A stretch of DNA of 59,397 nt from a virus, in the IMG/VR virus record IMGVR_UViG_3300005882_000001, positions 1-59,397 of that record. The stretch is one strand, 5' to 3'. The notes beneath the pieces were generated by a model. That model was not told where the DNA came from. It worked only from the letters and a program-made list of their open reading frames with translations, and did no database searches. Positions within the stretch are counted from its first letter, which is position 1; each line of letters opens with the position of its first letter. The translations under genes were made by a program, and so were the position numbers. Shown here piece by piece: positions 16,920-47,311 of the stretch.

Positions 16920-16995
16920 AAGTCAGACCCCCGCACGCTGGCTCTGCGGACCAAAACCAGCACAAATTTAATTCAATTTGAAGGATTCAACGACA

Positions 16996-18228
16996 ATGAA
17001 TAACTCCCCGTTAAGTCAGACACCTGAGCACATGATGAAAATGATGAAAGCGCGTATTCCCCTGCGTATTAATCATCCATTTTTTGGCTCTTTGCTCTAC
17101 AAAGCCAACATGCGCCCAGAACCAAAAGTCGAAAAACTTGCGACCGAAGGCCGGGATATCTTTTACAACCCAGAATACGTGGAATCAGTATCGCAAGAAC
17201 GAGTGCAGTATGACTTATGTGAAAACATCATGCACAAAGCCCTACTCCACCCGCTTCGTGTTCAAGGTCGTGACTTAGAACGCTGGAACGAAGCTTGCGT
17301 GTACTCCATTTCGGCCTTTCTGAAACAATGCGGATTACAATTACCCGAAGACGTGCTTTATGACAGTAAGTATGATGACGTTACTTCATGGGCAGCCGAA
17401 GATATTTACCTCGATTTAATCCGCCGCAAACCACCAAGCAACAATAACCCGAATCACCAACCTGGTTCTGGTTTCTCCAGTGGTAGCCCAGACCATTTAT
17501 TGGATAACAACCACGACCCATCCGATGGTGGTGACAAAAACGAACAGCCAAAAGACCAATCAGGCATGACGCAGATGGAACAGGAAATGAAACAAGACCT
17601 GGCCGCTGCTCGTCAAATGCAAAAAGCCGCCACCGGTAAAGTGCCTGACGTTATTGAAAATCTCGTGCAAAACATCCTTCAGCCTAAAGAAGATTGGCGC
17701 GTACGTTTACGGGAATTCATGATGAATGGCGGCTTTGATGATGTCACTTGGCGTCGCCCCAAACGTCGTATGTTCGCCCACGGGGTTTACTTACCTATCG
17801 TGGAATCCGAAACTATGGGCAACTGGGCTTGCTTGTTTGATACATCTGGCTCAATTTACGCTTGCGAAGAAACTTTGAAAACGTTCATGGGCGAGATTAA
17901 CGCCATTGTCGAGGACCTTAACCCGAAGAAAACAACGGTTATCCAGTGCAATTGTCGAGTAACCAAAATCGAAGAGTTCGAACAGGGCTCAGAAGTTAAG
18001 TTCAAGCTCAAAGGCGGTGGCGGTACAGCATTTAGCCCAGCAATTGACGCCGCACTTGAACTCGATGAAGACCCAGAAGTCATTATCTACTTCACTGATT
18101 TATACGCTAACGACTTCGGTTCTGATCCAGGCGTCCCAGTGCTTTGGGCAGTTTACGATAATCCTGGCCCAATCCGTGAATTACAAGAACAAGTACCATT
18201 TGGACAAGTGATTAAAATCGAGGATTAA
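16996..18228 (+). CDS. VWA-domain protein (partner of the MoxR-like ATPase)
   Basis: The MIDAS motif is LFDTSGSI, and the C-terminal half also carries GGGGTAF and YFTDLYAND. The ATG at 16996 is preceded by GAAGGA; the track start at 16978 is TTG. Confidence 0.75.
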   Translation: MNNSPLSQTPEHMMKMMKARIPLRINHPFFGSLLYKANMRPEPKVEKLATEGRDIFYNPEYVESVSQERVQYDLCENIMHKALLHPLRVQGRDLERWNEACVYSISAFLKQCGLQLPEDVLYDSKYDDVTSWAAEDIYLDLIRRKPPSNNNPNHQPGSGFSSGSPDHLLDNNHDPSDGGDKNEQPKDQSGMTQMEQEMKQDLAAARQMQKAATGKVPDVIENLVQNILQPKEDWRVRLREFMMNGGFDDVTWRRPKRRMFAHGVYLPIVESETMGNWACLFDTSGSIYACEETLKTFMGEINAIVEDLNPKKTTVIQCNCRVTKIEEFEQGSEVKFKLKGGGGTAFSPAIDAALELDEDPEVIIYFTDLYANDFGSDPGVPVLWAVYDNPGPIRELQEQVPFGQVIKIED

Positions 18229-20150: not shown

Positions 20151-23021
20151 ATGCAAACCCTTGATGTAACCATAGATTTAGAAACGTATTTCGACGCTCA
20201 GTATTCATTGACCAAAAAAACCATCACAACGATGGATTATGTGCGTGACCCACGGTTTGAATTACAGGGCATGTCGATAAAAATTGGTGGGAGCCGGACG
20301 CGGTATTATGACACTACGGAAGCGATACAAAAACAAATCGCTAATCTAAAAAAGTTACAAAAAACTCATAAAATTAATTTGATTGGGCAAAATACCAAGT
20401 TCGATGCGCTGGTATTAAATGAGCGTTTGGGTTTTACTCCGGATTATTATTCCGACACCCAAGCCATGTCCAAAGGCTTATGGCCGCATTATCCATCTAA
20501 TCTTGAGGCCATTGCCAAACGTCTATGGCCAAATGACAAAGAAAAACACAAGCTAGACGGCCTAACAGCAGTAAAAGGCGTACGCCGTGAAGACTTCACC
20601 AGAGCCATGCGCCACAAACTAGGCGTATACTGCGTACGTGATAGCGATATTACCTATCAAGCTTTCAAAATCATGAAGCAGTGGATGCCGCAGTCTGAGC
20701 TTGATGTTATCAACATGACCGTGCGCATGTTTGTCGAACCACAATTTGTGCTAGACACCCGATTGATGCAACAGGTTATTGAGCAAGCAAAAACTGAAGA
20801 ATCAGTTGCCGTTAAAATGATGCAAGAAGCCCACCCGGATTACCCGGTCACTCGGCAGACATTCACTAGCAACCAACAATTCGTTAATTTTTTAAAATAT
20901 CTTGGTATAAACGACTCCGAAATACCAACCAAAATATCCCCCCGCACTGGTAAAGTGACGCCCGCGCTTGGCAAAAACGATGTGCCGTTCATTAAATTTA
21001 AAAATGACAATATCCATCTTGCCAAAATATTCCAGACCCGTGAATTTCTCAAAAGCTCTATCTCACGCACCCGCGCGCAGAAACTCATTCAAGCGGTTGA
21101 GCATCACCCAGAGAAAAAACTTTGTGTGCCCTTGGCCTATTACCAAGCACACACCGGGCGCTATGGAGGCAACGAAGGGCTGAACTTACAAAACTTGCAA
21201 CGCAAAAGCCACCATCGACTTGCGCTTACAGCACCGGAAGGCTCATTCGTTTATGTAATCGACTCGTCTAATATCGAAGCCCGTATGCTCGCCTGGTTTG
21301 CTAATGAACATGGGCTCCTTGACCAGTTTCGTAACAAAGAAGATGTATACTCAACCCTCGCCAGTAAGATTTACGATATTGAAGTCACTAAACAAACACA
21401 CCCAGGCGAACGCGGCGTAGGCAAAGTCGCCTGTATTGCCGAAGGCCAACGAGTGTTGACCGACAAAGGGCTGGTACCTATTGAAAAAGTTACTACTGGA
21501 CATAAGGTATGGGATGGGCTAGGCTTCGTGAGCCACCACGGCGTAGTAGACCAAGGCGTAAAAGAGGTTATTACCTATGACGGACTCACAGCAACACCCG
21601 ACCATATTGTATTCACCACCGAAGGACGCCAGATTCCGTTCGGGGAAATCGCATCCTCGATGGGCTGGCTCGCAGTTACCGGATATGGTAGGCACCCAAT
21701 TCGGTTTAGTGAAGATCATATCTGCGCAAGTCAAACGCAAAAACGGCAGCCGAAAACTGAAATGCCAATGCACATCCTGTGGGGTTGTAAAATGGATAAA
21801 CATAAACAACCTAACAAGTGGGAAGACCAATGGCTGCCAAAGTTGTTCACAAACACTATCCAAACATTCGACAATCCTTGGTCGCCGGTACGATGCTATA
21901 GTAGCCAGAGTGAGCAGGGAAACCAGCCCATCGTACCCCAACTACGGGGGGCGTGGGATAGAGAATCGGTTCAAGAGCAGAAAAGATTTCATACTCTATG
22001 TGGAAAAACATTTACCGCATCAAAACTACAAAGGAATGGAAATCGACCGGATAAACAACAACGGCCATTACGAACCGGGGAACTTACGACTTGTTGCGCG
22101 TCGGGTGAATACAAACAACCGCAGGTGTACCCAAACGATGCTTTTTCAAGGCAAAATGGTACCGATTACCGAGCTACCTACTCCATATTCATACAACCCG
22201 CTGTGGCGAATGGCGGAAGACGGCTTGACTTGGGAACAAATGATAAACCGGGCAATATTAGCAGTAGTCCAAAAGCGCAAAAACTGGCAAAAAATCAAAC
22301 AACGGCTAGAGTCTATGACATCCTTAATGCAGGTCCACGGCATCGTTTTACCGTGGAAGGGAAGTTAGTACATAACTGCCTTGGGCTTGGCTACCAGATG
22401 GGCGCACCGAAATTTTTCGATACATTACGTTCGGGACCAATGGGTATGGACCCCATCGACTGTGACTTCAACTTCGCTGAGCGGGTTGTCAAAACATTCC
22501 GTAACACTTACCCCAACATTGTACGTTCTTGGAAAACCGGCCAACATGTCATCACTAAAATGACCCGCGGTGGTATGGAAGAGCCTTGGGGCCCACTCAT
22601 GATTTATGAACGCGCATTGATGTTACCAAACGGGATGTGCCTGCATTATCCAGAGCTGTCAGTCACAGAAATCGAAACCGTCACTGGGGTTAATTACGAA
22701 TATAATTATAAGACCTACGATTTTAAGTCCAAAAAGTTCGTAGACAGAAAAATCTATGGGGGTAAACTCATAGAGAACATCGTCCAAGCATTAGCCCGAA
22801 TTGTAATTATTGACCAAATGCTCAGGATTGATGCTATGCTAAAAGAATACGGCGGTCGTGTTGTCCTCCAAGTGCATGACGAAATCATCGCAATTGCTCC
22901 AAAAGAGAAAGCCGATGAAATCTTTGCTAAGATGACCGCTATAATGTCAACTCCACCAGCATGGTGCCACGACCTCCCGCTTGATTCAGAAGGCGGCTTC
23001 GACACCTGCTATAGTAAATAG
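20151..23021 (+). CDS. Family-A DNA polymerase with 3'-5' exonuclease domain, interrupted by an intein (precursor 956 aa)
   Basis: Exonuclease motifs are TIDLETYF, GQNTKFDALVL and YCVRDSDITY. Polymerase motif A is VIDSSNIEARMLAW. Motif B, RGVGKVA / CLGLGYQMG, is split by the intein. Motif C is LQVHDEIIA. Confidence 0.9.
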   Translation: MQTLDVTIDLETYFDAQYSLTKKTITTMDYVRDPRFELQGMSIKIGGSRTRYYDTTEAIQKQIANLKKLQKTHKINLIGQNTKFDALVLNERLGFTPDYYSDTQAMSKGLWPHYPSNLEAIAKRLWPNDKEKHKLDGLTAVKGVRREDFTRAMRHKLGVYCVRDSDITYQAFKIMKQWMPQSELDVINMTVRMFVEPQFVLDTRLMQQVIEQAKTEESVAVKMMQEAHPDYPVTRQTFTSNQQFVNFLKYLGINDSEIPTKISPRTGKVTPALGKNDVPFIKFKNDNIHLAKIFQTREFLKSSISRTRAQKLIQAVEHHPEKKLCVPLAYYQAHTGRYGGNEGLNLQNLQRKSHHRLALTAPEGSFVYVIDSSNIEARMLAWFANEHGLLDQFRNKEDVYSTLASKIYDIEVTKQTHPGERGVGKVACIAEGQRVLTDKGLVPIEKVTTGHKVWDGLGFVSHHGVVDQGVKEVITYDGLTATPDHIVFTTEGRQIPFGEIASSMGWLAVTGYGRHPIRFSEDHICASQTQKRQPKTEMPMHILWGCKMDKHKQPNKWEDQWLPKLFTNTIQTFDNPWSPVRCYSSQSEQGNQPIVPQLRGAWDRESVQEQKRFHTLCGKTFTASKLQRNGNRPDKQQRPLRTGELTTCCASGEYKQPQVYPNDAFSRQNGTDYRATYSIFIQPAVANGGRRLDLGTNDKPGNISSSPKAQKLAKNQTTARVYDILNAGPRHRFTVEGKLVHNCLGLGYQMGAPKFFDTLRSGPMGMDPIDCDFNFAERVVKTFRNTYPNIVRSWKTGQHVITKMTRGGMEEPWGPLMIYERALMLPNGMCLHYPELSVTEIETVTGVNYEYNYKTYDFKSKKFVDRKIYGGKLIENIVQALARIVIIDQMLRIDAMLKEYGGRVVLQVHDEIIAIAPKEKADEIFAKMTAIMSTPPAWCHDLPLDSEGGFDTCYSK
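21432..22376 (+). mobile_element. Class-1 intein (315 codons) inserted in polymerase motif B
   Basis: The N-terminal splice residue is the Cys of CIAEGQRVLTDKG. Block B is GLTATPDH. The C-terminal blocks are VYDILNAGPRHRFTVEGKLVHN, followed by the +1 Cys (TGC at 22377). Removing the intein restores RGVGKVA-CLGLGYQMG. Confidence 0.85.
21685..22368 (+). CDS. HNH homing endonuclease encoded in the +1 frame, nested inside the intein
   Basis: The product starts MVGTQFGLVKII and carries CQCTSCG...GCQSCS, YGGRGIENRF and EIDRINNNGHYEPGNLRLVARRVNTNN. The stop TAG at 22366-22368 lies 8 nt before the extein Cys codon. The track ORF begins at 21577, but that part overlaps genuine Hint sequence. Confidence 0.75.
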   Translation: MVGTQFGLVKIISAQVKRKNGSRKLKCQCTSCGVVKWININNLTSGKTNGCQSCSQTLSKHSTILGRRYDAIVARVSRETSPSYPNYGGRGIENRFKSRKDFILYVEKHLPHQNYKGMEIDRINNNGHYEPGNLRLVARRVNTNNRRCTQTMLFQGKMVPITELPTPYSYNPLWRMAEDGLTWEQMINRAILAVVQKRKNWQKIKQRLESMTSLMQVHGIVLPWKGS

Positions 23022-39769: not shown

Positions 39770-42700
39770 TTATTCCTTCCAAAAATCATAATTGATTCCA
39801 AATATACTACCATTTAATTGATTATGCACTGGAATTCCACGCTTAACCCCCGCCGCGAAACCATCACTTAAGAATGTTTCCGCATGCCCAGCAGTTGGGC
39901 CAAGCAAACTAATCACTCCAGAATTACCGCGTTCGGTCGCATCAAACATGCCTTGGACTAAATTCAATGGCCCAAGTCCCCCGGCGCGGTCGAATAATTC
40001 ATAAGTGTAGCTTATCATATCCTCGTCGTCGGTCGGGTCTTCTTCGAAACCATATTTTATTGTTTCACGTAGACTTAACCCTAATGCAGCCAACGGTAAT
40101 AAGGATATGGAAGCCAACACAGTGGGGGCGGCGATTTCAAGTGGATTTCCAGTTTCAATTGCTCGAGAACGCATTTCACGATAGATACCACCCATAATAT
40201 TATGAGCAAACGCCCAGAAGAATGATTTTAATTGCCATACCAATTGGAAGCGCATATCGTTCGCCCATACCGGGCGTTGCCCTGCATCTGGACGCAATAC
40301 CGATTCCGTTACAAATTGGTCAAGCGCATCAAGCACTTTAACAATTGTTCTTGAATTTGGGTCTTTGGCCGACATGGATACCGGCTCGCCGAGTGATTCC
40401 CATAAGGCGACATCTGCGGCTTCAAGACCCAATTCACGTAAATAGCGTTCAGAACGTTTGTCACCGTTGCCTGCTTTGCGTGCATGTTCGCGGATAAAAT
40501 CTTTACCCATACCCATCGCAACAACTCGCGTCATCCGCGTGAATTGCTCAAGACCAGTAAAGCGGAAAAATGTTTCATTCCATTTTTGAACTTTCGGGTC
40601 CATGTACATTTCACCATACTGGCTTTGGATAATCGACACAATCGCGTCATGCTGCGCTAAGCCCATGATACGAGCTTGTTCCGCTAGCGTGTGGTACTGG
40701 CTAATATTCTTCAGCATATTTTTTACGTTCTTCGCAAAACTGCTAAAGTCTTTTGTCCGTACTAAGATATTACCGAAATCTGAAATACTAGCCGGTACAG
40801 CGAACAACAGCGTTGTGTAGTACTGAAGCGATACTAAATATTGCTGGAACTTCCGAGCCGTCGGGTTCATGTCGAGACCAGAACGACCAAGAATCGCATC
40901 CATCGCTTTACGCAATCGACGGCGGTCTTCTGGTTTATCCACAGACTCCATGACTTCTTCAAAGCGGCCCATCGGGTCCCAGAACTTAGGCGCTTCTGGT
41001 TTGTTATCCAGAAGTTTGCTTACTACATTTTCAAGAATTTTTATCTTGTTCTTGATGCGGCCTTTATCGCCGGCTTTCGCGTTTGCTAATTCTTTCTCTG
41101 CTGCTTTTACCGCATCCTTAGCACCCGCCAGGCTTTCTTCCCAGTCAGCTTTTTTCTTCTCGTATTTCTTTTTCAAGTCTTGCACGGTAGCAAAAAACTC
41201 TGGGTCAACATGACGGCCCTCAGCGCGGTCATTCATTAGTTTGTTGAATAACACATCAATAGCGCGGTAACCACCCATGCGTGATTCAAGCTCAGCACGT
41301 TTGGTGCCTTGTTTGATGTACTTGAACAAACGCGCGCTAGGTGCTTCCATAAACTGTTCAAGCTCACTATCTGGAATATCACGCAGCATCCGGCTATATT
41401 TCTGTGCCAATCCTACGGTTTGGATATTCGAGACAGCGAACGTGTGGTCAGCGTCCATACCATCGTTTTCAACAACATGTTTATAGAACGCTTCAATATA
41501 TTTATCCGCTTGTGCTTGAGTCAGTGGATTACCGTTTTTATCCTTTAGATATTTACGAATCAAATCGGTAAATTCTGCTTTGCCCTCAGCCGACATCAAC
41601 GTGTCCATTTTAAATACACGTGGTAAACGATACCCTGGTGTATTGCCCAAGCGCCCGCCCATACGAGAATTTAAATACGCCCAGAATTCGTCCATTTGTT
41701 TTTTAAACTCTGGATGAATTGTTTTTGGGTTAACTACATTGTCGACTAACCAAGCGTCCCAAGTTTTTGGGTCTTTCGGCAACAGTGAACTGAACACGTG
41801 TGTCCAACGTGCGCCCCAATGCTCTTTCGCATCTAAATAGCCTTGTTTGGCTGAGCGCTCTTCGCCGAGTTTTTCCCGCTTCACATAAGTCCAAGCCCGC
41901 GGCCCTTTGGTTTTTTCAAAACTTGGTGCTTTACTACCCGCCGGAATAGCACGCTCGGCTTTGAAGAAGTTGCCGTTGTGATAAACAATGTCGCCTTTGC
42001 CGTATGAATTTTTCGAGTTCCATACGCGTTTGATGGGGCGGTGCAAAACCTGGACGCTGGCGTCGTTAGATTGCGAACGTGTTTTTATTTGATTCGCAAA
42101 CTCATCGCCAACCAGGTTACGGAATTCAGTGTCAGTAAACCCGCCATAAGTATTAATGGTTTCGAAAAACTTAAACTTACCGTTACGGCGTTTTAACCGA
42201 TGCGCTTGTACTTTCATTTTACGCACAAGTTTATTGGCATCTGAAGCAAAACCCGCGCCTTGGCCGGTCATATTTTTATGCGTATCATAGCCAAAGTAAT
42301 GAGGCGCGCGAAACTTATTCTGTGCGATTACTGTACGCATGAACCGATTGAAACGGGCATTGGTGCGGAATCGCTCATTAAGCCCGTCGGTTAATGCATC
42401 GAACAATTCACGTAAGCGGGCGACCACACGCTCAAAAACAGGGTATGTTTTTTCCGCAAGACCGCCCGTGTCGGCTCTCTTAGATTTGTTTTCGATAAAC
42501 TGTTTAAATCTTTCCAGCTCACCCTCTTTTGCGAGGTTAAAGACAGGTACACCTTTGCGGGACGCCATATCTATTGCTTGGCCTGTACCACCCGTTTTTA
42601 TACTACGCTCGCTTGAAGTAGTTGCACCATCACGAGTCCAAGTCAATACAAAATCGACAGGGCTTTTTAAGTCACGTCCGAAGACTTGGTTAGTATTACG

Positions 42701-45700
42701 CGCCATTAAATCTAATGCGTATTGCTTTAGGTTTTTGCCGTTTGGGTGTATTTCTCTAGCTATGTTGCGTGTGACTTCCACAGCATCTTTTGCATAAAAT
42801 ATCTGCTTAGAGTTACCCGCGCCAGCTTCAAAGGCTGAATCTGCTCCTTTGGCACCACCCGAATTTAATGTATACCCTTTACCTGCTAAATACTCCGCAA
42901 TGCTTTTCATTGTTTCGAGTATTTCAGGTGGGGTGTTGCGGGAGCCTATTCCGGCGTAAACCATAGTATTTTGTCCGGCTTCGTATTCTGGAATACTATC
43001 AAAATCAGTAATTTTTGTATCCGCCATTTCCTCGTTTTTGGTTTTAGCGGGACCTACTTCTGCACTAGGGGCAACAGTTCCGGTTTCATCCACTATAAAT
43101 GCGCTCAGCTTATCTGCAAACCATTCTTCGAATTCTGCTTGGCTTAAATCTTGTTTACGCAATTCTTTCATTGCTTCTAAGCGCAAAGCACGAGATTCTG
43201 CTTGGCTCACGCTAGCCATGGTACGCGCATAGACATAGTGGCCGATTTCATGACCAAGTGCCATGGCACGATTAAATCGCGCCTGTTGGTTTGGCTTAGC
43301 CGAAGCAAACGGACGAAGCATAACTACGCCAAAGTCGCCCATTGGTACATAGGCCGCGTACGCGCCTTTGTTAATCGATTCCTGAGCTTCAAGCAGTAAT
43401 CGGAACCGGTAGTCTTTATGCACTCGGTTCGCAGGCACACCTAAGATTTTTGCGAACGCCCCGCGGAGTTCCGCCATATCTTTGGCAGATGAAGTCATCA
43501 CGTAGAAGTTAGAACCACTGCCAAGTACTTTTCGCACTTTGCCCATGATGGCTTTTTCTTCTTGGGTAATAGACGGTGTTGCAATTGTCTTATCCGACTT
43601 ACCGCCAAAAATTTGTTTCAGTTGTTTGAAACCAACTTCAAGTGTATTCGGAGTACGCTTATTCCCAGGAGCCTTTGAACCAACGCCGATGTCGGATTGG
43701 TTCTCATTCGCCTCGTCTATCATGCGTTTTTTGGCTTCGTCTTTTGCTTCGCGAGCAGCCGCCAAGTCGTCAAAATACTGTTGGAAGAAGTTCTCAGGGT
43801 TAGTATTTGAACTGAAATATTCAAACACGCCGTCGCGTTCCATCTGCAATAGTTGCTTCGGACTAAGCTGCGCCGCCCATAATTCCATAGGCAACGCCGG
43901 GCCCTCGGTGTTTTCAACATATGATAGATAAACATCTTCAACAGGCGAGTAAGCATCAGTTGGGTTATCAATCATGTCGAGTAACATGCGTCGACGCCCT
44001 TCGGTCGCTAAATCTAGTCGACTCAATCTACCAGCTTTTACTAATGGTGCTAAACGCTCAGCGACAATCGCTGCCTGGGCTGGGCTATCCTGCGCGGCTT
44101 TATGCAGGCGTTTATACATTTGTTCGATTGTTTCTTTAGTTGTGTCAAGCGCTGGTGCAAACTGCCCCATTGGGATTTGGCCTTTCAACCAAGACAGCCA
44201 TTCGAACGCCTGGCTTACCGCCGAACGTTTCACTTCACCAGTGATATCTACCGCAAATTTATTATTAACCAAGTCCGCATAGGTATAATCACGGTCAGGG
44301 GTTTTATAAATCACCGCGCTGTTTTTGTTTAAAAACTTGGCGTTGCCTTTAGCATCTTTGGTGATTTCCGTTGCCCCCATTAACTGCTGGCGTACGATAT
44401 CTGGGTTAGCAGAGTCTTCAACTAGAAGTTCATATACATAAGGGAACGTATCCAACATACGCTGGCGCAACGAAACTTGTTCGTTGTATGAATCACGATT
44501 AGCGTCAAGCAACATAGACAACAACTGATTCAAATTAACATGCGAGACTCCGCCGCGTTTGTTGGTGTAAACAAACAAACCAGAAATTGGCTCGCCTTTG
44601 CGGTTAGTTACAATAACCTGGCCCTCGTTGTCATATTCAACTTTTGCTGCTGGTATTGTGCCGCGTGCAGTTTGCCATGCGCGTTTAATTGCTTTACGAA
44701 GTGGCAAAGAACCAGCGGCATAATCCGCCGCCGTAAGTCCTTCGCTTTGTGCCTCTAGACGTTCGCTATCGGTTACATCCTCGTCGGCTTCATAATCAAT
44801 ATCGCTGTCCGTTTCTGAGTCTTCTTTTTTATAGCCTTTGGCTTCGTCTGCGGTACGTTTGCTCGAGACAATTTGCTCTCCACGCGTAGCGGCACTTGGC
44901 TCGATTACTTCAATAAAATAACCAGTGTCTTCATTACCGACAATTTCGAATTCAGTTAAATTAAACTCAGGTAGGCGGCCTAGCTCCGCAATAGCGGCGT
45001 TAGCAGTTTTCGCATCAGGAAACCCTTGTGACATTTTCTCTTCAAACTTGGAATCTTCCAAAGAAAACATGGCATCCTGCGCGGCTTTTGCATCGACATT
45101 ACCATTTGCGTCATGGAGCAGACCGCGTTTGTTTTCGCTGTTTGATAATTCACGATTGGCGTTCAAAATATTCATACCCAGGTATTTACGCTCTGGGTTT
45201 ATTGCTTCGCCATCGCTCGCCACATCGTCTGATTTTTCACTAACCGAAATTCGATAGGTTCCATCATCCAATTCAACTGGCTCAAAAATTTTCGATGGGT
45301 GAGCAGACGCCAATAGAGGAACAACATTATCCACTTGCTGTTTATTAAATGGCTTAGTTTTTTTAGCATCTTTGCTGGCGCTACGGTAGTTCACTCGATT
45401 ACCGCCGTCGATAAACAATAAATCAGGGCCAATGAATTCTGGCTCCTGTTGAGTTTCGATTGTCTTCGGCGTGCCGTCTTTGTTAACTCGTTGTGATAAT
45501 ACTTCTTGTGCTGTTTTACGTGAGCGCTCTTTCGCACTTGGTCCGAGTTTACGACGCTTCGCTATTACTTCTTCTGCGGTTTGTTCAGTCCACTCATGCA
45601 CCACCGGTTCTTGGCCGGTGCGCTCCCGTGCGGCGTTTTGTGCTGAAACTAATTGTTCTGGACCTTCGACAAGCACAGGAGAACCTTGCGCACCGGACTC

Positions 45701-47311
45701 GTCGACTGGAATAACCATGTGCGTTGGGTTCTCTGGTTTATTATCCACGCCATAGTTTTGCACTGCGCCGAGACCTCGTTCAGAAGCAAGCTGTTTTACT
45801 TCATCGACTTTATCTGGCGTAGTGACTAAAGAACCGCCGCGGGCAGATTCATCCTGAACACCTGGAATTGTATCAATACCCACTTCGACCATTTCGCCTG
45901 AGTACACAGCTTGTTGTAGTTCAAGCGGGAGTTGTTCTTCAGGTGAACGATAAAAGGCTTTTTGTTTACCGGCTTTCGTTGCTTTAACTGAAACAGAATT
46001 TTCTTCTTCGGTTACAGGTAGAGGCTTCTGGTTAGTAGCTAAATATTCGTCCGGTTGTGTAAAACCAGTTTTGCCTTCTAGTTGTTCCGGAGTAAGAACT
46101 AAATTAGGCTCAGCATTATGTTGCTGATTGCCAGCTAAGTATGGGTCTGGTTCTCTAAAACCGGTCTCGCCTTCCAACTGTTCCGGAGTAAGAACTAAAT
46201 TAGGTTCGGCGTTTCGCTGGTTCCCTGCCAAATATGGGTCAGGTTGTTCAAACCCACTAGTAGGCGTGGGTTCGGGTTGTAGGGGTGTGTCAACGGCTTC
46301 AGTAGAGTCGGCCACACCTGGTTCTGCGATATTTTCTTCATCGCTATATTCAAAGACAGGTTCTTCCGCGAAGCTTGTATCCGTAGCATCAGTTTTGTTT
46401 TTGAGATTTTCTTTAATAGCTTTATTTTGTTTTAGTGTTCTTGGAATCCCGCTAAGACCACCTAACGAACCACCGCCAAAATAAGCGCGAGTAGCACTGT
46501 TCCAGAATTTACTAAAAACTTCAGATTCTACAAGCTCTTCCCCAGTAAGCGCCGATATAGCAGTATCATCTAAAAGAGACTGCGCCCCTTCCGTCAAACC
46601 CTCAGCTAATCCCATAGAATTAAAGTCTTTTACTGCTTGCAGGGTAACACTTTTTGGTGTTTTAGGTAGATTGGCTGCTCCGCGTAATTTACCTGCTGGT
46701 TTTAATACAATATCGGATAGTTTATTTACCGGTAGGTATTCTAATCCGAGTTTACCAAGAGAAGTCGCGAGTACCGCCGCAGGGTCTTTAATATCACTAT
46801 CATTAAAACTTAGTTGCGTTTCACCAAGTAATTGAGGGGAACTTCCAGCCATCGCACCAGCGGACGAAGCTCGTTTTAGCGCAGATTTAGATAGCTGACT
46901 AGCAAGCGTTTTTCCAAAGGCGGCACGGGCCATAACGCCAGCGCCGCCAGAGCCTAGCATGGTTGCGGCTTGCGGTATAAATTCTGCGATGGATTCTAGG
47001 GCAAACGTACCTAGCTGTGCATAAGAATCAATATCTTCAAATTTTTGTATTGAAGCTGGGGCGAGCATTGCTTTGTTTAAATTATTCTCAACACCTTCCT
47101 GCGCCCATTCGCTAAGAGCCTCAGAACCAACTATATCTCCCAACCAATCAACAGAAGCATAAAGCATGGCGTCGAGGTTATCTTTACCTCTGGCGATGCC
47201 CTGCTCAAAATTACCACGGCCAGCGGCAGAATTTACATTCTGCCAATCTCCGAGTCGTGTACCGCTGATATCACCAGATTTTAATCGCTCGAGTCTGTCG
47301 TCTGTGGCCAT
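39770..47311 (-). CDS. Giant (2513 aa) multidomain virion/ejection ('polyvalent') protein
   Basis: A single uninterrupted ORF with an AAGGAAG RBS. It contains an HExxH motif (ALGHEIGHYV), a DprA/SLOG-like domain (YAGIGSRNTPP...LNSGGAKGADSAFEAGA), a CBM5/12-like motif, 29-aa tandem repeats and C-terminal hydrophobic segments. It lies within the structural module. Confidence 0.85.
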   Translation of the reverse strand: MATDDRLERLKSGDISGTRLGDWQNVNSAAGRGNFEQGIARGKDNLDAMLYASVDWLGDIVGSEALSEWAQEGVENNLNKAMLAPASIQKFEDIDSYAQLGTFALESIAEFIPQAATMLGSGGAGVMARAAFGKTLASQLSKSALKRASSAGAMAGSSPQLLGETQLSFNDSDIKDPAAVLATSLGKLGLEYLPVNKLSDIVLKPAGKLRGAANLPKTPKSVTLQAVKDFNSMGLAEGLTEGAQSLLDDTAISALTGEELVESEVFSKFWNSATRAYFGGGSLGGLSGIPRTLKQNKAIKENLKNKTDATDTSFAEEPVFEYSDEENIAEPGVADSTEAVDTPLQPEPTPTSGFEQPDPYLAGNQRNAEPNLVLTPEQLEGETGFREPDPYLAGNQQHNAEPNLVLTPEQLEGKTGFTQPDEYLATNQKPLPVTEEENSVSVKATKAGKQKAFYRSPEEQLPLELQQAVYSGEMVEVGIDTIPGVQDESARGGSLVTTPDKVDEVKQLASERGLGAVQNYGVDNKPENPTHMVIPVDESGAQGSPVLVEGPEQLVSAQNAARERTGQEPVVHEWTEQTAEEVIAKRRKLGPSAKERSRKTAQEVLSQRVNKDGTPKTIETQQEPEFIGPDLLFIDGGNRVNYRSASKDAKKTKPFNKQQVDNVVPLLASAHPSKIFEPVELDDGTYRISVSEKSDDVASDGEAINPERKYLGMNILNANRELSNSENKRGLLHDANGNVDAKAAQDAMFSLEDSKFEEKMSQGFPDAKTANAAIAELGRLPEFNLTEFEIVGNEDTGYFIEVIEPSAATRGEQIVSSKRTADEAKGYKKEDSETDSDIDYEADEDVTDSERLEAQSEGLTAADYAAGSLPLRKAIKRAWQTARGTIPAAKVEYDNEGQVIVTNRKGEPISGLFVYTNKRGGVSHVNLNQLLSMLLDANRDSYNEQVSLRQRMLDTFPYVYELLVEDSANPDIVRQQLMGATEITKDAKGNAKFLNKNSAVIYKTPDRDYTYADLVNNKFAVDITGEVKRSAVSQAFEWLSWLKGQIPMGQFAPALDTTKETIEQMYKRLHKAAQDSPAQAAIVAERLAPLVKAGRLSRLDLATEGRRRMLLDMIDNPTDAYSPVEDVYLSYVENTEGPALPMELWAAQLSPKQLLQMERDGVFEYFSSNTNPENFFQQYFDDLAAAREAKDEAKKRMIDEANENQSDIGVGSKAPGNKRTPNTLEVGFKQLKQIFGGKSDKTIATPSITQEEKAIMGKVRKVLGSGSNFYVMTSSAKDMAELRGAFAKILGVPANRVHKDYRFRLLLEAQESINKGAYAAYVPMGDFGVVMLRPFASAKPNQQARFNRAMALGHEIGHYVYARTMASVSQAESRALRLEAMKELRKQDLSQAEFEEWFADKLSAFIVDETGTVAPSAEVGPAKTKNEEMADTKITDFDSIPEYEAGQNTMVYAGIGSRNTPPEILETMKSIAEYLAGKGYTLNSGGAKGADSAFEAGAGNSKQIFYAKDAVEVTRNIAREIHPNGKNLKQYALDLMARNTNQVFGRDLKSPVDFVLTWTRDGATTSSERSIKTGGTGQAIDMASRKGVPVFNLAKEGELERFKQFIENKSKRADTGGLAEKTYPVFERVVARLRELFDALTDGLNERFRTNARFNRFMRTVIAQNKFRAPHYFGYDTHKNMTGQGAGFASDANKLVRKMKVQAHRLKRRNGKFKFFETINTYGGFTDTEFRNLVGDEFANQIKTRSQSNDASVQVLHRPIKRVWNSKNSYGKGDIVYHNGNFFKAERAIPAGSKAPSFEKTKGPRAWTYVKREKLGEERSAKQGYLDAKEHWGARWTHVFSSLLPKDPKTWDAWLVDNVVNPKTIHPEFKKQMDEFWAYLNSRMGGRLGNTPGYRLPRVFKMDTLMSAEGKAEFTDLIRKYLKDKNGNPLTQAQADKYIEAFYKHVVENDGMDADHTFAVSNIQTVGLAQKYSRMLRDIPDSELEQFMEAPSARLFKYIKQGTKRAELESRMGGYRAIDVLFNKLMNDRAEGRHVDPEFFATVQDLKKKYEKKKADWEESLAGAKDAVKAAEKELANAKAGDKGRIKNKIKILENVVSKLLDNKPEAPKFWDPMGRFEEVMESVDKPEDRRRLRKAMDAILGRSGLDMNPTARKFQQYLVSLQYYTTLLFAVPASISDFGNILVRTKDFSSFAKNVKNMLKNISQYHTLAEQARIMGLAQHDAIVSIIQSQYGEMYMDPKVQKWNETFFRFTGLEQFTRMTRVVAMGMGKDFIREHARKAGNGDKRSERYLRELGLEAADVALWESLGEPVSMSAKDPNSRTIVKVLDALDQFVTESVLRPDAGQRPVWANDMRFQLVWQLKSFFWAFAHNIMGGIYREMRSRAIETGNPLEIAAPTVLASISLLPLAALGLSLRETIKYGFEEDPTDDEDMISYTYELFDRAGGLGPLNLVQGMFDATERGNSGVISLLGPTAGHAETFLSDGFAAGVKRGIPVHNQLNGSIFGINYDFWKE
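46020..46260 (-). repeat. About 2.5 tandem copies of an 87-90-nt (29-30 aa) coding repeat inside the giant gene
   Basis: The protein reads GFEQPDPYLAGNQRNAEPNLVLTPEQLEGET / GFREPDPYLAGNQQHNAEPNLVLTPEQLEGKT / GFTQPDEYLATNQ. At the DNA level, tgttccggagtaagaactaaattagg is repeated at about 46082 and 46169. Confidence 0.9.

Follow-up and report, generated by a model that had tools for sequence, protein, structure and literature searches.

A 59,397-nucleotide stretch of viral DNA (IMG/VR record IMGVR_UViG_3300005882_000001, positions 1–59,397; hereafter the window), a segment of a phage genome in which replication genes form one module and structural genes another, probably carries a mobile intein–nuclease cassette in motif B of a phage family-A DNA polymerase gene, with the nuclease encoded as a separate gene in the +1 frame. 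The host gene is undivided, being a single continuous open reading frame (ORF) of 956 aa, and it includes a 3'-5' exonuclease domain (Pfam DNA_pol_A_exo1, E = 2.8e-7) and matches phrog_17 of PHROG (E = 2e-63). Its parts, in the polymerase frame (frame 0), are listed here with pLDDT (predicted local distance difference test) scores from AlphaFold2 where these define a part.

20151..23021, plus strand: family-A DNA polymerase precursor ORF, 956 aa (Pfam DNA_pol_A, E = 1.3e-21)
20151..21431, plus strand: N-extein, 427 aa, C-terminal end ...ERGVGKVA, placed by aligning the spliced extein to intein-less polymerases
21432..22376, plus strand: class-1 intein, 315 aa, 945 nt, from Cys1 to His314-Asn315, motifs read from the sequence
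21432..21707, plus strand: Hint N-lobe, intein aa 1–92, with block A (Cys1) and block B (T55-x-x-H58 at 21594–21605); pLDDT 94–98
21708..22271, plus strand: linker, intein aa ~93–280, hydrophilic, stop-free and predicted to be disordered; pLDDT ~40
22272..22376, plus strand: Hint C-lobe, intein aa 281–315, with block F (VYDILNAGPRHRF) and block G (LVHN), delimited by pLDDT and the Hint-frame selection pattern
22377..23021, plus strand: C-extein, first residue Cys+1 (CLGLGYQMG); removal of the intein would restore polymerase motif B

The intein and the two overlapping frames

All class-1 residues are present, namely Cys1 (21432–21434), T55, H58, D296, His314-Asn315 (22371–22376) and Cys+1 (22377–22379), and T55, H58 and D296 are invariant across four aligned cassettes. 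The spliced 641-aa polymerase aligns in one piece (aa 6–632), at ~35% identity, to the intein-less polymerases of Pseudomonas phages phiR18 and KPP25, and the intein boundaries are therefore exact; the insertion point lies within the conserved motif B. An earlier note, made by a model from the sequence of the window, had placed the Hint blocks in the polymerase frame only at the two ends of the intein, with a hydrophilic, motif-free middle. The positions of Cys1 and TxxH at one end and of D296 and His-Asn at the other confirm the first point, and structure prediction in both frames, a check that the note had proposed, agrees with the second: the nuclease folds confidently (see below) and the frame-0 middle is disordered between the Hint lobes. 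Specifically, the AlphaFold2 model of the polymerase-frame intein scores pLDDT 94–98 at aa 1–90, ~74 at aa 281–290 and 95–97 at aa 291–315, and its aa 98–270 score ~40 without any secondary structure, so that the refuting condition named in the note, a linker that is itself a folded endonuclease in the polymerase frame, fails on this prediction. The two polymerase-frame ends are predicted to form a Hint fold. With Foldseek against the PDB, 50 of the 50 matches listed for the folded part are inteins or BIL/Vint Hint domains (top probability 1.00), DnaE and RecA inteins among them.

From 21562 onwards, the +1 frame stays open up to the TAG at 22366–22368, which indeed lies 8 nt ahead of the Cys+1 codon, and the third frame has 23 stops inside the nuclease ORF; the polymerase frame (coordinate mod 3 = 0) has none across 21300–22500. 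When the codons of the +1 ORF were shuffled synonymously, the polymerase frame acquired a mean of 7.2–8.5 stops, and the probability of obtaining zero was 2e-5 to 8e-5. A T at nuclease codon position 3 creates a polymerase-frame stop if the next codon begins with AA, AG or GA. None of the 66 nuclease codons that precede such codons ends in T, compared with 40 of 196 elsewhere (Fisher P = 4.8e-6). Moreover, free-standing homologues provide the null model that the earlier note had suggested: the five compared, from phages of Acinetobacter, Vibrio, Staphylococcus, Butyrivibrio and Streptococcus, hold 23–41 stops in the equivalent frame. The stop-free polymerase frame is real and chance does not explain it. 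Thus, the note was right that the polymerase frame has no stops through the nuclease ORF and, as the shuffles and the missing T-ending codons demonstrate, that this is very unlikely by chance; its proposal that selection preserves polymerase read-through is likewise supported, by the stop avoidance and by the polymerase frame being kept stop-free in relatives.

The mean pairwise diversity per codon position in 21 distinct 930-nt cassettes, mostly of 54–70% nucleotide identity, reveals which frame is constrained where. Given the one-base offset between the two frames, position 1 of a polymerase codon (pol1) coincides with nuclease position 3 (HNH3), and so on.

Hint-N only (nt 1–144): pol1/HNH3 0.245; pol2/HNH1 0.161; pol3/HNH2 0.57
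Nuclease core (nt 256–780): pol1/HNH3 0.561; pol2/HNH1 0.313; pol3/HNH2 0.25
Hint-C (nt 851–930): pol1/HNH3 0.163; pol2/HNH1 0.106; pol3/HNH2 0.326

Diversity is greatest at the polymerase-frame wobble position in both Hint lobes and at the nuclease-frame wobble position in the nuclease core (a 3>1>2 pattern), which indicates that purifying selection alternates from the Hint frame to the nuclease frame and back to the Hint frame. Polymerase-frame position 1 is the most variable one in the linker, and thus that frame is under no amino-acid constraint there. No codon position is free to vary in the overlap of the nuclease ORF with Hint block B, all three being conserved; furthermore, the third-position diversity of conserved fourfold-degenerate Hint codons is 0.749 in codons 1–48 versus 0.287 in codons 49–85, which overlap the nuclease N-terminus. 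Judged from these alignments, constraint acts in both frames on ~37 codons at the 5' end (about 21577–21686) and on another ~25 at the 3' end (about 22285–22368), and in the remaining ~200 codons the polymerase frame appears to be constrained only to lack stops. The ~200 dual-coding codons of the earlier note are therefore dual in the sense that both frames are open, and the double constraint is confined to ~60 of the codons. Overall, the polymerase-frame linker is a passenger reading of the nuclease gene, which has abundant free-standing homologues. An HNH gene overprinted on a mini-intein linker, as the note put it, is apt as to the free-standing type of the nuclease, and 'overprinted' is loose, the nuclease being a pre-existing type of gene.

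The same arrangement is widespread. Whichever frame served as the query, tblastn searches matched one and the same location in the DNA polymerase genes of Gardnerella phage vB_Gva_AB1 and of six Streptococcus phages, namely PhiSdyV1524-fexAoptrA and five Javan prophages, at ~40% identity over the full length. Caulobacter phages, APSE-1 and Shewanella SFCi1 have the +1 nuclease layout at a second polymerase site, and in APSE-1 and SFCi1 the polymerase frame is likewise without stops. In IMG/VR, a pattern scan detected 225 relatives, 80 of which were analysed; in these 80, three phage records and the window, the nuclease is at +1 to Hint in every case (84/84), with zero Hint-frame stops versus 9.5 expected from shuffles. 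Intein G+C across cassettes ranges from 0.40 to 0.63. Scanning one genome for each bacterial species gave 52 further cassettes with the +1 layout, in prophages of Bacillota, Actinomycetota (Gardnerella), Synergistota, Desulfobacterota, Lentisphaeria, Acidobacteriota and Pseudomonadota. All 118 of the full-length cassettes scored have nuclease homology at +1, and a relative with the nuclease in the Hint frame was looked for among all related cassettes examined and none was found; apparent exceptions in the prophage scan proved to be genes with several inteins or decayed copies with a frameshift, and locally the nuclease is still at +1 in them. This survey of related phage polymerases, another check listed in the earlier note, found the nuclease at +1 in every related cassette examined, and the +1 nuclease layout is real and conserved in more than 100 other phages and prophages.

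The nuclease-like product and its start

The +1 ORF and its elements, with residues numbered from the first ATG, are the following.

21562..21567, plus strand: Shine-Dalgarno (SD)-like AAGAGG, 9 nt 5' of ATG 21577, inside the Hint 'K-E-V' codons, read from the sequence
21577..22368, plus strand: nuclease-like ORF in frame +1, 263 aa plus TAG, in the PHROG 'HNH endonuclease' family phrog_374 (E = 3e-28)
21685..21687, plus strand: alternative internal ATG (Met37), start of the region homologous to free-standing enzymes and the start chosen by the earlier note
21763..21846, plus strand: Cys cluster C63, C65, C68 ... C87, C90, a putative zinc-ribbon element (alignment and model)
21943..21960, plus strand: YGGRGI motif, aa 123–128, the family hallmark (alignment)
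22036..22119, plus strand: predicted beta-beta-alpha core, aa 154–181 (MEIDRINNNGHYEPGNLRLVARRVNTNN), with Arg158 at the HNH catalytic His position (AlphaFold2 model)
22192..22335, plus strand: C-terminal helical, helix-turn-helix (HTH)-like domain, aa 206–253, whose last helices overlap Hint block F in the other frame (AlphaFold2 model)

In addition to phrog_374, two other PHROG families labelled HNH endonuclease, phrog_3377 (E = 4e-19) and phrog_2081 (E = 1e-9), match the +1 ORF. In the 56-sequence alignment of homologues, C65 is invariant (C65 and C68 both are among four cassettes), Y123, G124 and R126 are invariant with G127 and I128 nearly so, and R158, G168 and N169 are invariant with D157 and N181 nearly so. 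The AlphaFold2 model built with this alignment has a mean pLDDT of 88.8; residues 31–250 mostly score above 87 and the first 30 residues ~60. It consists of a beta domain with the Cys cluster (strands at 45–75), a helical segment, a beta-beta-alpha unit at 154–180 (strands 154–158 and 170–174, helix 175–180) and C-terminal helices (206–253, pLDDT >90). In BFVD it matches, at E ~1e-12, the predicted structures of phage proteins that are free-standing and bear the names HNH endonuclease, AP2-domain protein or HTH homing endonuclease. A Pfam scan of the 56 homologues matched HTH_8 or HTH_30 in a few of them and HNH_3 in 3/56 only, at E of at least 0.16. By pattern, the motif EIDRINNNGHYEPGNLRLVARRVN pairs with HNH_3-type motifs, and we take Arg158 to occupy the position of the general-base His. 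The catalytic His is thus replaced by R158, although the Asn positions N169 and N181 are kept; free-standing homologues also carry Arg at this position. On these sequence comparisons, the +1 product is not classed as a canonical HNH enzyme; it belongs to a 'YGGRGI...DRI(D/N)' phage protein family, whose members carry HNH endonuclease annotations and have the behaviour of homing-endonuclease genes. Accordingly, the 'clear HNH signatures' of the earlier note find backing in the PHROG profiles and in the structural matches to phage proteins named HNH, and none in Pfam, NCBIfam or PDB sequence searches, or in Arg158 standing for His.

The same note had read a 227-aa ORF from ATG 21685. The ORF is intact, but the first ATG is at 21577 and the 227-aa form is a subset of the 263-aa one. 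Moreover, no SD-like motif is present upstream of ATG 21685 in the window. The SD and ATG bases at 21562–21579 also encode the Hint residues K-E-V...Y-D. An ATG is found at intein offset +145 nt in 54 of 71 unique cassettes, 48 of these 54 with an upstream SD-like motif, often AAGGAGGT; in the window, as in Javan255 and in vB_Gva_AB1, 145 nt separate the start of the intein from the first ATG of the nuclease frame. The Glu codon within the SD motif is GAG in 34 cases versus GAA in 5, compared with 812:713 in the flanking exteins (P = 1.2e-5, uncorrected for relatedness). Because of the SD/ATG conservation, the GAG bias and the downstream synonymous-site constraint, independent internal initiation at 21577 (263 aa) is favoured over 21685 (227 aa), either being possible.

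Three other ORFs of the window may be mentioned here. On the plus strand, ~2 kb upstream of the polymerase, a 416-aa ORF at 16978–18228 is a second HNH-annotated gene of the replication module, with a match to phrog_1314 'HNH endonuclease' (E = 2e-85). On the minus strand, a 140-aa ORF with a TTG start (21519–21941) is antisense to the Hint block-B and nuclease N-terminal region, with no evidence of being a gene, and a 2513-aa ORF (39770–47311) of the structural module adjoins tail-fibre-like genes.

Mobility and alternative explanations

The distribution of the cassette is sporadic. Among Streptococcus prophage polymerases, the intein is present in two (Javan255 and PhiSdyV1524), and ~20 others, at 81–88% nucleotide identity, align straight through the site without it. 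Cassettes occupy motif B of very different family-A polymerases, a second polymerase site, helicases and other genes. Hint and nuclease divergence are correlated (Spearman 0.51 over 104 unique cassettes), as expected if both travel together, with the caveat that the loci are phylogenetically related, so that the Spearman and Fisher P values overstate independence. Deletion derivatives that lack the nuclease core and retain its ends are mini-inteins (L082, L077 and L128–L137), and related mini-inteins are common. Sporadic presence, many sites and decay to mini-inteins are what a homing cycle would be expected to produce.

We propose the following cycle. Ribosomes in the polymerase frame would read through to yield the 956-aa precursor, in which the Hint lobes (aa 1–92 and 281–315) are joined by a disordered linker of ~190 aa, the off-frame reading of the nuclease gene. 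Class-1 splicing (Cys1, TxxH, His-Asn, Cys+1) would then excise 315 aa and restore motif B. Separate initiation at the SD and ATG within the Hint coding sequence (21562–21579) would give the 263-aa nuclease-like protein, predicted to be of the free-standing phage 'HNH' type with a zinc ribbon, a beta-beta-alpha core and an HTH. This protein most likely cuts intein-less polymerase alleles during co-infection, and repair would copy the cassette (homing). A polymerase-frame stop presumably inactivates the polymerase, and selection would hence purge T at nuclease codon position 3 before AA, AG or GA. As to its origin, it is plausible that a free-standing nuclease gene inserted into a mini-intein of a G+C-rich phage, where the chance that the passenger frame is open would be ~1% and not 0.01% (compare the zero-stop probabilities of G+C-rich loci), and that the cassette subsequently spread with continuous purging of stop-creating mutations.

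Several other explanations were weighed. The presence of the nuclease at +1 in 118/118 full-length cassettes, the exact 145-nt offset in independent records (Javan255 and vB_Gva_AB1; 54/71 unique cassettes) and the zero stops in a frame 0 that would otherwise hold ~8 effectively refute an assembly or sequencing artefact, in which the nuclease would truly be in frame and compensating indels would lie near 21570–21690 and 22260–22370; its chance is next to nil, even though canonical HNH inteins are in frame and the window is known from assembled sequence alone. A canonical bifunctional intein with an in-frame nuclease was also rejected, as the window and every relative have the nuclease homology at +1, and so was a split intein or fractured gene, since the polymerase is one uninterrupted 956-aa ORF. 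Programmed frameshifting, either +1 and then -1 to make an in-frame Hint–HNH–Hint intein or a single +1 to make an N-extein–HintN–nuclease fusion, would fit a nuclease frame that is open 5' of its ATG and an ORF that overlaps Hint blocks at both ends, and the unusually conserved synonymous sites of Hint codons 49–85 could reflect an RNA signal. It is nevertheless very unlikely given the conserved SD-like motif and ATG at the start of the +1 ORF, with their synonymous bias toward SD, and given that frame 0 is stop-free in essentially every intact cassette, which would be needless if ribosomes normally left it. The idea that the +1 ORF is a functionless decaying relic, open by recent descent, with selection on polymerase read-through only, draws on L053, L082 and L128–L137, whose nuclease ORF is truncated or deleted while frame 0 is intact, implying that the nuclease is dispensable for the host gene. 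We consider this quite unlikely too: 21 diverged cassettes show the 3>1>2 pattern of purifying selection in the nuclease frame, the ORF is intact among cassettes with only ~40% amino-acid identity, and that of the window holds all family-invariant residues and is modelled with high confidence (pLDDT 88.8).

In a further alternative, the +1 protein is made and under selection without being the homing nuclease of this intein, and might be a regulator that binds DNA or a nuclease of another role. The cassette is sporadic among near-identical exteins, has moved as a unit to many insertion sites and host genes and decays to mini-inteins; in addition, free-standing homologues with the same Arg occupy typical homing-endonuclease positions. 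A non-homing role is therefore unlikely, but it deserves some weight in view of the invariant R158 where HNH enzymes have the general-base His, the predicted HTH-like C-terminal domain, and the lack of HNH matches in Pfam and the PDB. The latter results also belong to a set of points that weigh against a mobile cassette with its own nuclease. The +1 ORF has no match in Pfam or NCBIfam, PDB sequence searches with the single protein and with a profile returned only chance zinc-ribbon-like matches and no HNH, and Foldseek of the nuclease model against the PDB gave no significant match of any kind. The nuclease chemistry stays a prediction because the canonical catalytic His is an invariant Arg. 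Similarly, Pfam and NCBIfam scans matched no intein profile. Megablast of the region against phage genomes gave no match, the closest nuclease homologue of the window is 57% identical, and presence/absence polymorphism is consequently seen in relatives only, since no close relative of the window was found. Finally, splicing, +1 translation by internal initiation, cleavage and homing are all predicted from sequence. We nonetheless favour the mobile intein–nuclease cassette with a separate +1 gene, at the strength given at the outset.

Several related loci are of interest in their own right. More than one intein of this Hint family may occupy a polymerase gene, with two or three in L099, L077 and P0105: L099 (1180–4182) has two full cassettes with +1 nucleases and a third element, L077 (333–2111) has one mini-intein and one full cassette, and protein P0105 has two mini-inteins. 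In L136 (406–1605), L150 (481–1704) and L101 (738–1128), the Hint N and C blocks are 0.07–0.9 kb apart. The blocks are in one frame in L136 and L150, with many frame-0 stops in the scored spans (that of L136 includes extein and a second intein), and in different frames in L101; these loci could be split inteins, fractured genes or another nested insert. The called polymerases P0119, P0120, P0122 and P0117 start within the C-terminal block of a further, upstream intein (e.g. ...KTYDIVNAGPKNRLMANGRIVSNS/GRNIQLQNLPQ), which suggests that the upstream intein is stop-interrupted or split there. Decaying copies include L053 (2640–2879), in which the nuclease ORF is cut to 79 aa and the polymerase frame is still open, as well as L142, L146, L147 and L153, and in several prophage copies Hint-N is separated from the remainder by a frameshift or by a stop in frame 0. 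Between Javan101/104/107/113 and Javan255, the 480 nt directly 5' of the intein are 99.2% identical and the 500 nt on the 3' side have no megablast match; a recombination breakpoint is located at or within the intein, as expected from homing co-conversion or mosaic exchange.

A different intein (CLHRHTQVLTDGG...FLVAHN/CELGLGYEGG) is found at the same motif-B site in DNA polymerase I of Salmonella phage SLMP1 (L084, Jerseyvirus, MW201959.1, 1756–2700). Its +2 frame, open over 1845–2591, encodes a homologue from the nuclease family of the window, and its polymerase frame is stop-free versus 5.5 stops expected (P0 = 1.4e-4). The tblastn search with the nuclease matched 155 Salmonella phage records; one Jerseyvirus genome paper mentions inteins and not the polymerase case.

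Related systems and implications

The window has the attributes of out-of-frame-endonuclease inteins, i.e. a same-strand ORF at +1 and a stop-free intein frame whose reading lacks a fold, and the sporadic distribution that goes with mobility is seen in its Streptococcus prophage relatives. The earlier note knew of no description of such an arrangement, a belief that is outdated in light of recent preprints and of the RefSeq annotation of APSE-1. Thus, a 2025 preprint (bioRxiv 10.1101/2025.01.02.630785) presents actinophage inteins with an endonuclease VII-like ORF in frame 3, which its authors call previously unreported and for which they propose that a free-standing endonuclease gene invaded the intein. 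These inteins resemble ours in having a same-strand endonuclease ORF between the splicing blocks, in a frame different from that of intein and extein, with an in-frame reading devoid of recognisable structure; they differ in that the nuclease is EndoVII-like (InterPro IPR004211) and in frame 3 (+2), in their hosts and exteins, and in the few clusters described. In the text examined, neither a ribosome-binding site embedded in the intein nor an analysis of selection by frame is reported. The ShiLan domain, described by the same group, is a hidden out-of-frame HNH in a mycobacteriophage DNA methylase (PMC11855218). This domain is likewise an HNH-type ORF in an alternative frame, with a stop-free host-frame insertion that is predicted to loop out and a sporadic distribution; by contrast with the window, it involves no intein, the insertion is thought to stay in the protein, the start is GTG without a detectable SD, and the host gene is non-essential. 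Judging from its title, a September 2026 preprint (bioRxiv 10.64898/2026.09.14.751524) reports a cyanobacterial dnaX intein with an out-of-frame homing endonuclease, alike in the out-of-frame coding and unlike in its cellular host and extein.

RefSeq (NC_000935.1) annotates P46 of Hamiltonella phage APSE-1 as 'HNH endonuclease', on the same strand as, and nested in, P45 'DNA polymerase'. By Hint and nuclease homology, the +1 relation and the open polymerase frame, P45/P46 is a member of the cassette family of the window, although its intein precedes motif C (...YGGKS/C...HN/CENICQAAARD) rather than interrupting motif B and lacks the +145 ATG geometry. The intein has been lost differentially among APSE phages (PMC7313666), and the APSE literature examined does not discuss the nested ORF as an out-of-frame homing endonuclease. 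As an aside, P46 is annotated within the APSE-1 intein (L157, 2501–3421) from an internal ATG as 141 aa, whereas 222 codons of the +1 frame are open, counted from locus position 2685. Since the part upstream of the annotated start has homology to the window nuclease's N-terminal domain, that start was probably set too far downstream.

Two better-known arrangements differ more. Fractured genes, reportedly described by Dassa et al. in 2009, are said to have split inteins with a free-standing endonuclease between the halves. They share with the window a free-standing-type endonuclease gene between the N- and C-terminal splicing parts, but in their case two ORFs make up the host gene and splicing occurs in trans, whereas frame 0 of the window is continuous and splicing would be in cis. 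Canonical bifunctional inteins whose HNH domain lies in frame were reportedly the subject of Dalgaard et al. in 1997; their endonuclease is a domain of the intein polypeptide, unlike the window, where it is predicted to be a separate product in another frame. Thus, the window and its relatives belong to a recently recognised class and are not a new one. In the literature searched, we found no description of the size and breadth of this family, its fixed +1 geometry or its embedded ribosome-binding site, although P46 of APSE-1 has long carried its annotation.

Whether this is the largest and oldest family of out-of-frame-endonuclease inteins is, in our judgement, an evenly balanced question. 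The case would be that a single cassette, inherited as a unit, has reached phages of at least six bacterial phyla and entered helicase genes, other genes and more than one polymerase site, always with the nuclease at +1; that the ribosome-binding site, the start codon and the first 36 codons of the nuclease lie inside the Hint block-B sequence, with ~60 codons doubly selected; and that the off-frame layout is a stable selected design and not a transient step to an in-frame intein. If true, the dosage of the nuclease would not be tied to polymerase synthesis under this design, and the intein would not have to accommodate a folded insert.

There is also an annotation gap. The nuclease protein homologues (P0001–P0101) were called mainly on ~1 kb contigs, which truncate the polymerase ORF on either side; given a long contig, gene callers list the polymerase alone, so that +1 nuclease genes are systematically under-annotated and mostly missed. 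Cultured carriers are at hand in APSE-1, Caulobacter GB2A and Gardnerella vB_Gva_AB1, and the Streptococcus Javan prophages carry the cassette as well.

Inteins are usually taught as one polypeptide that combines splicing and homing domains. On the origin of inteins, the more than 100 cassettes offer concrete and plentiful cases for the view 'splicing first, endonuclease invades later', and natural long disordered inserts are seemingly not selected against in an essential polymerase, which bears on intein engineering. Overall, a free-standing-type nuclease gene can persist for a very long time off-frame inside an intein, held in place by selection on the essential polymerase.

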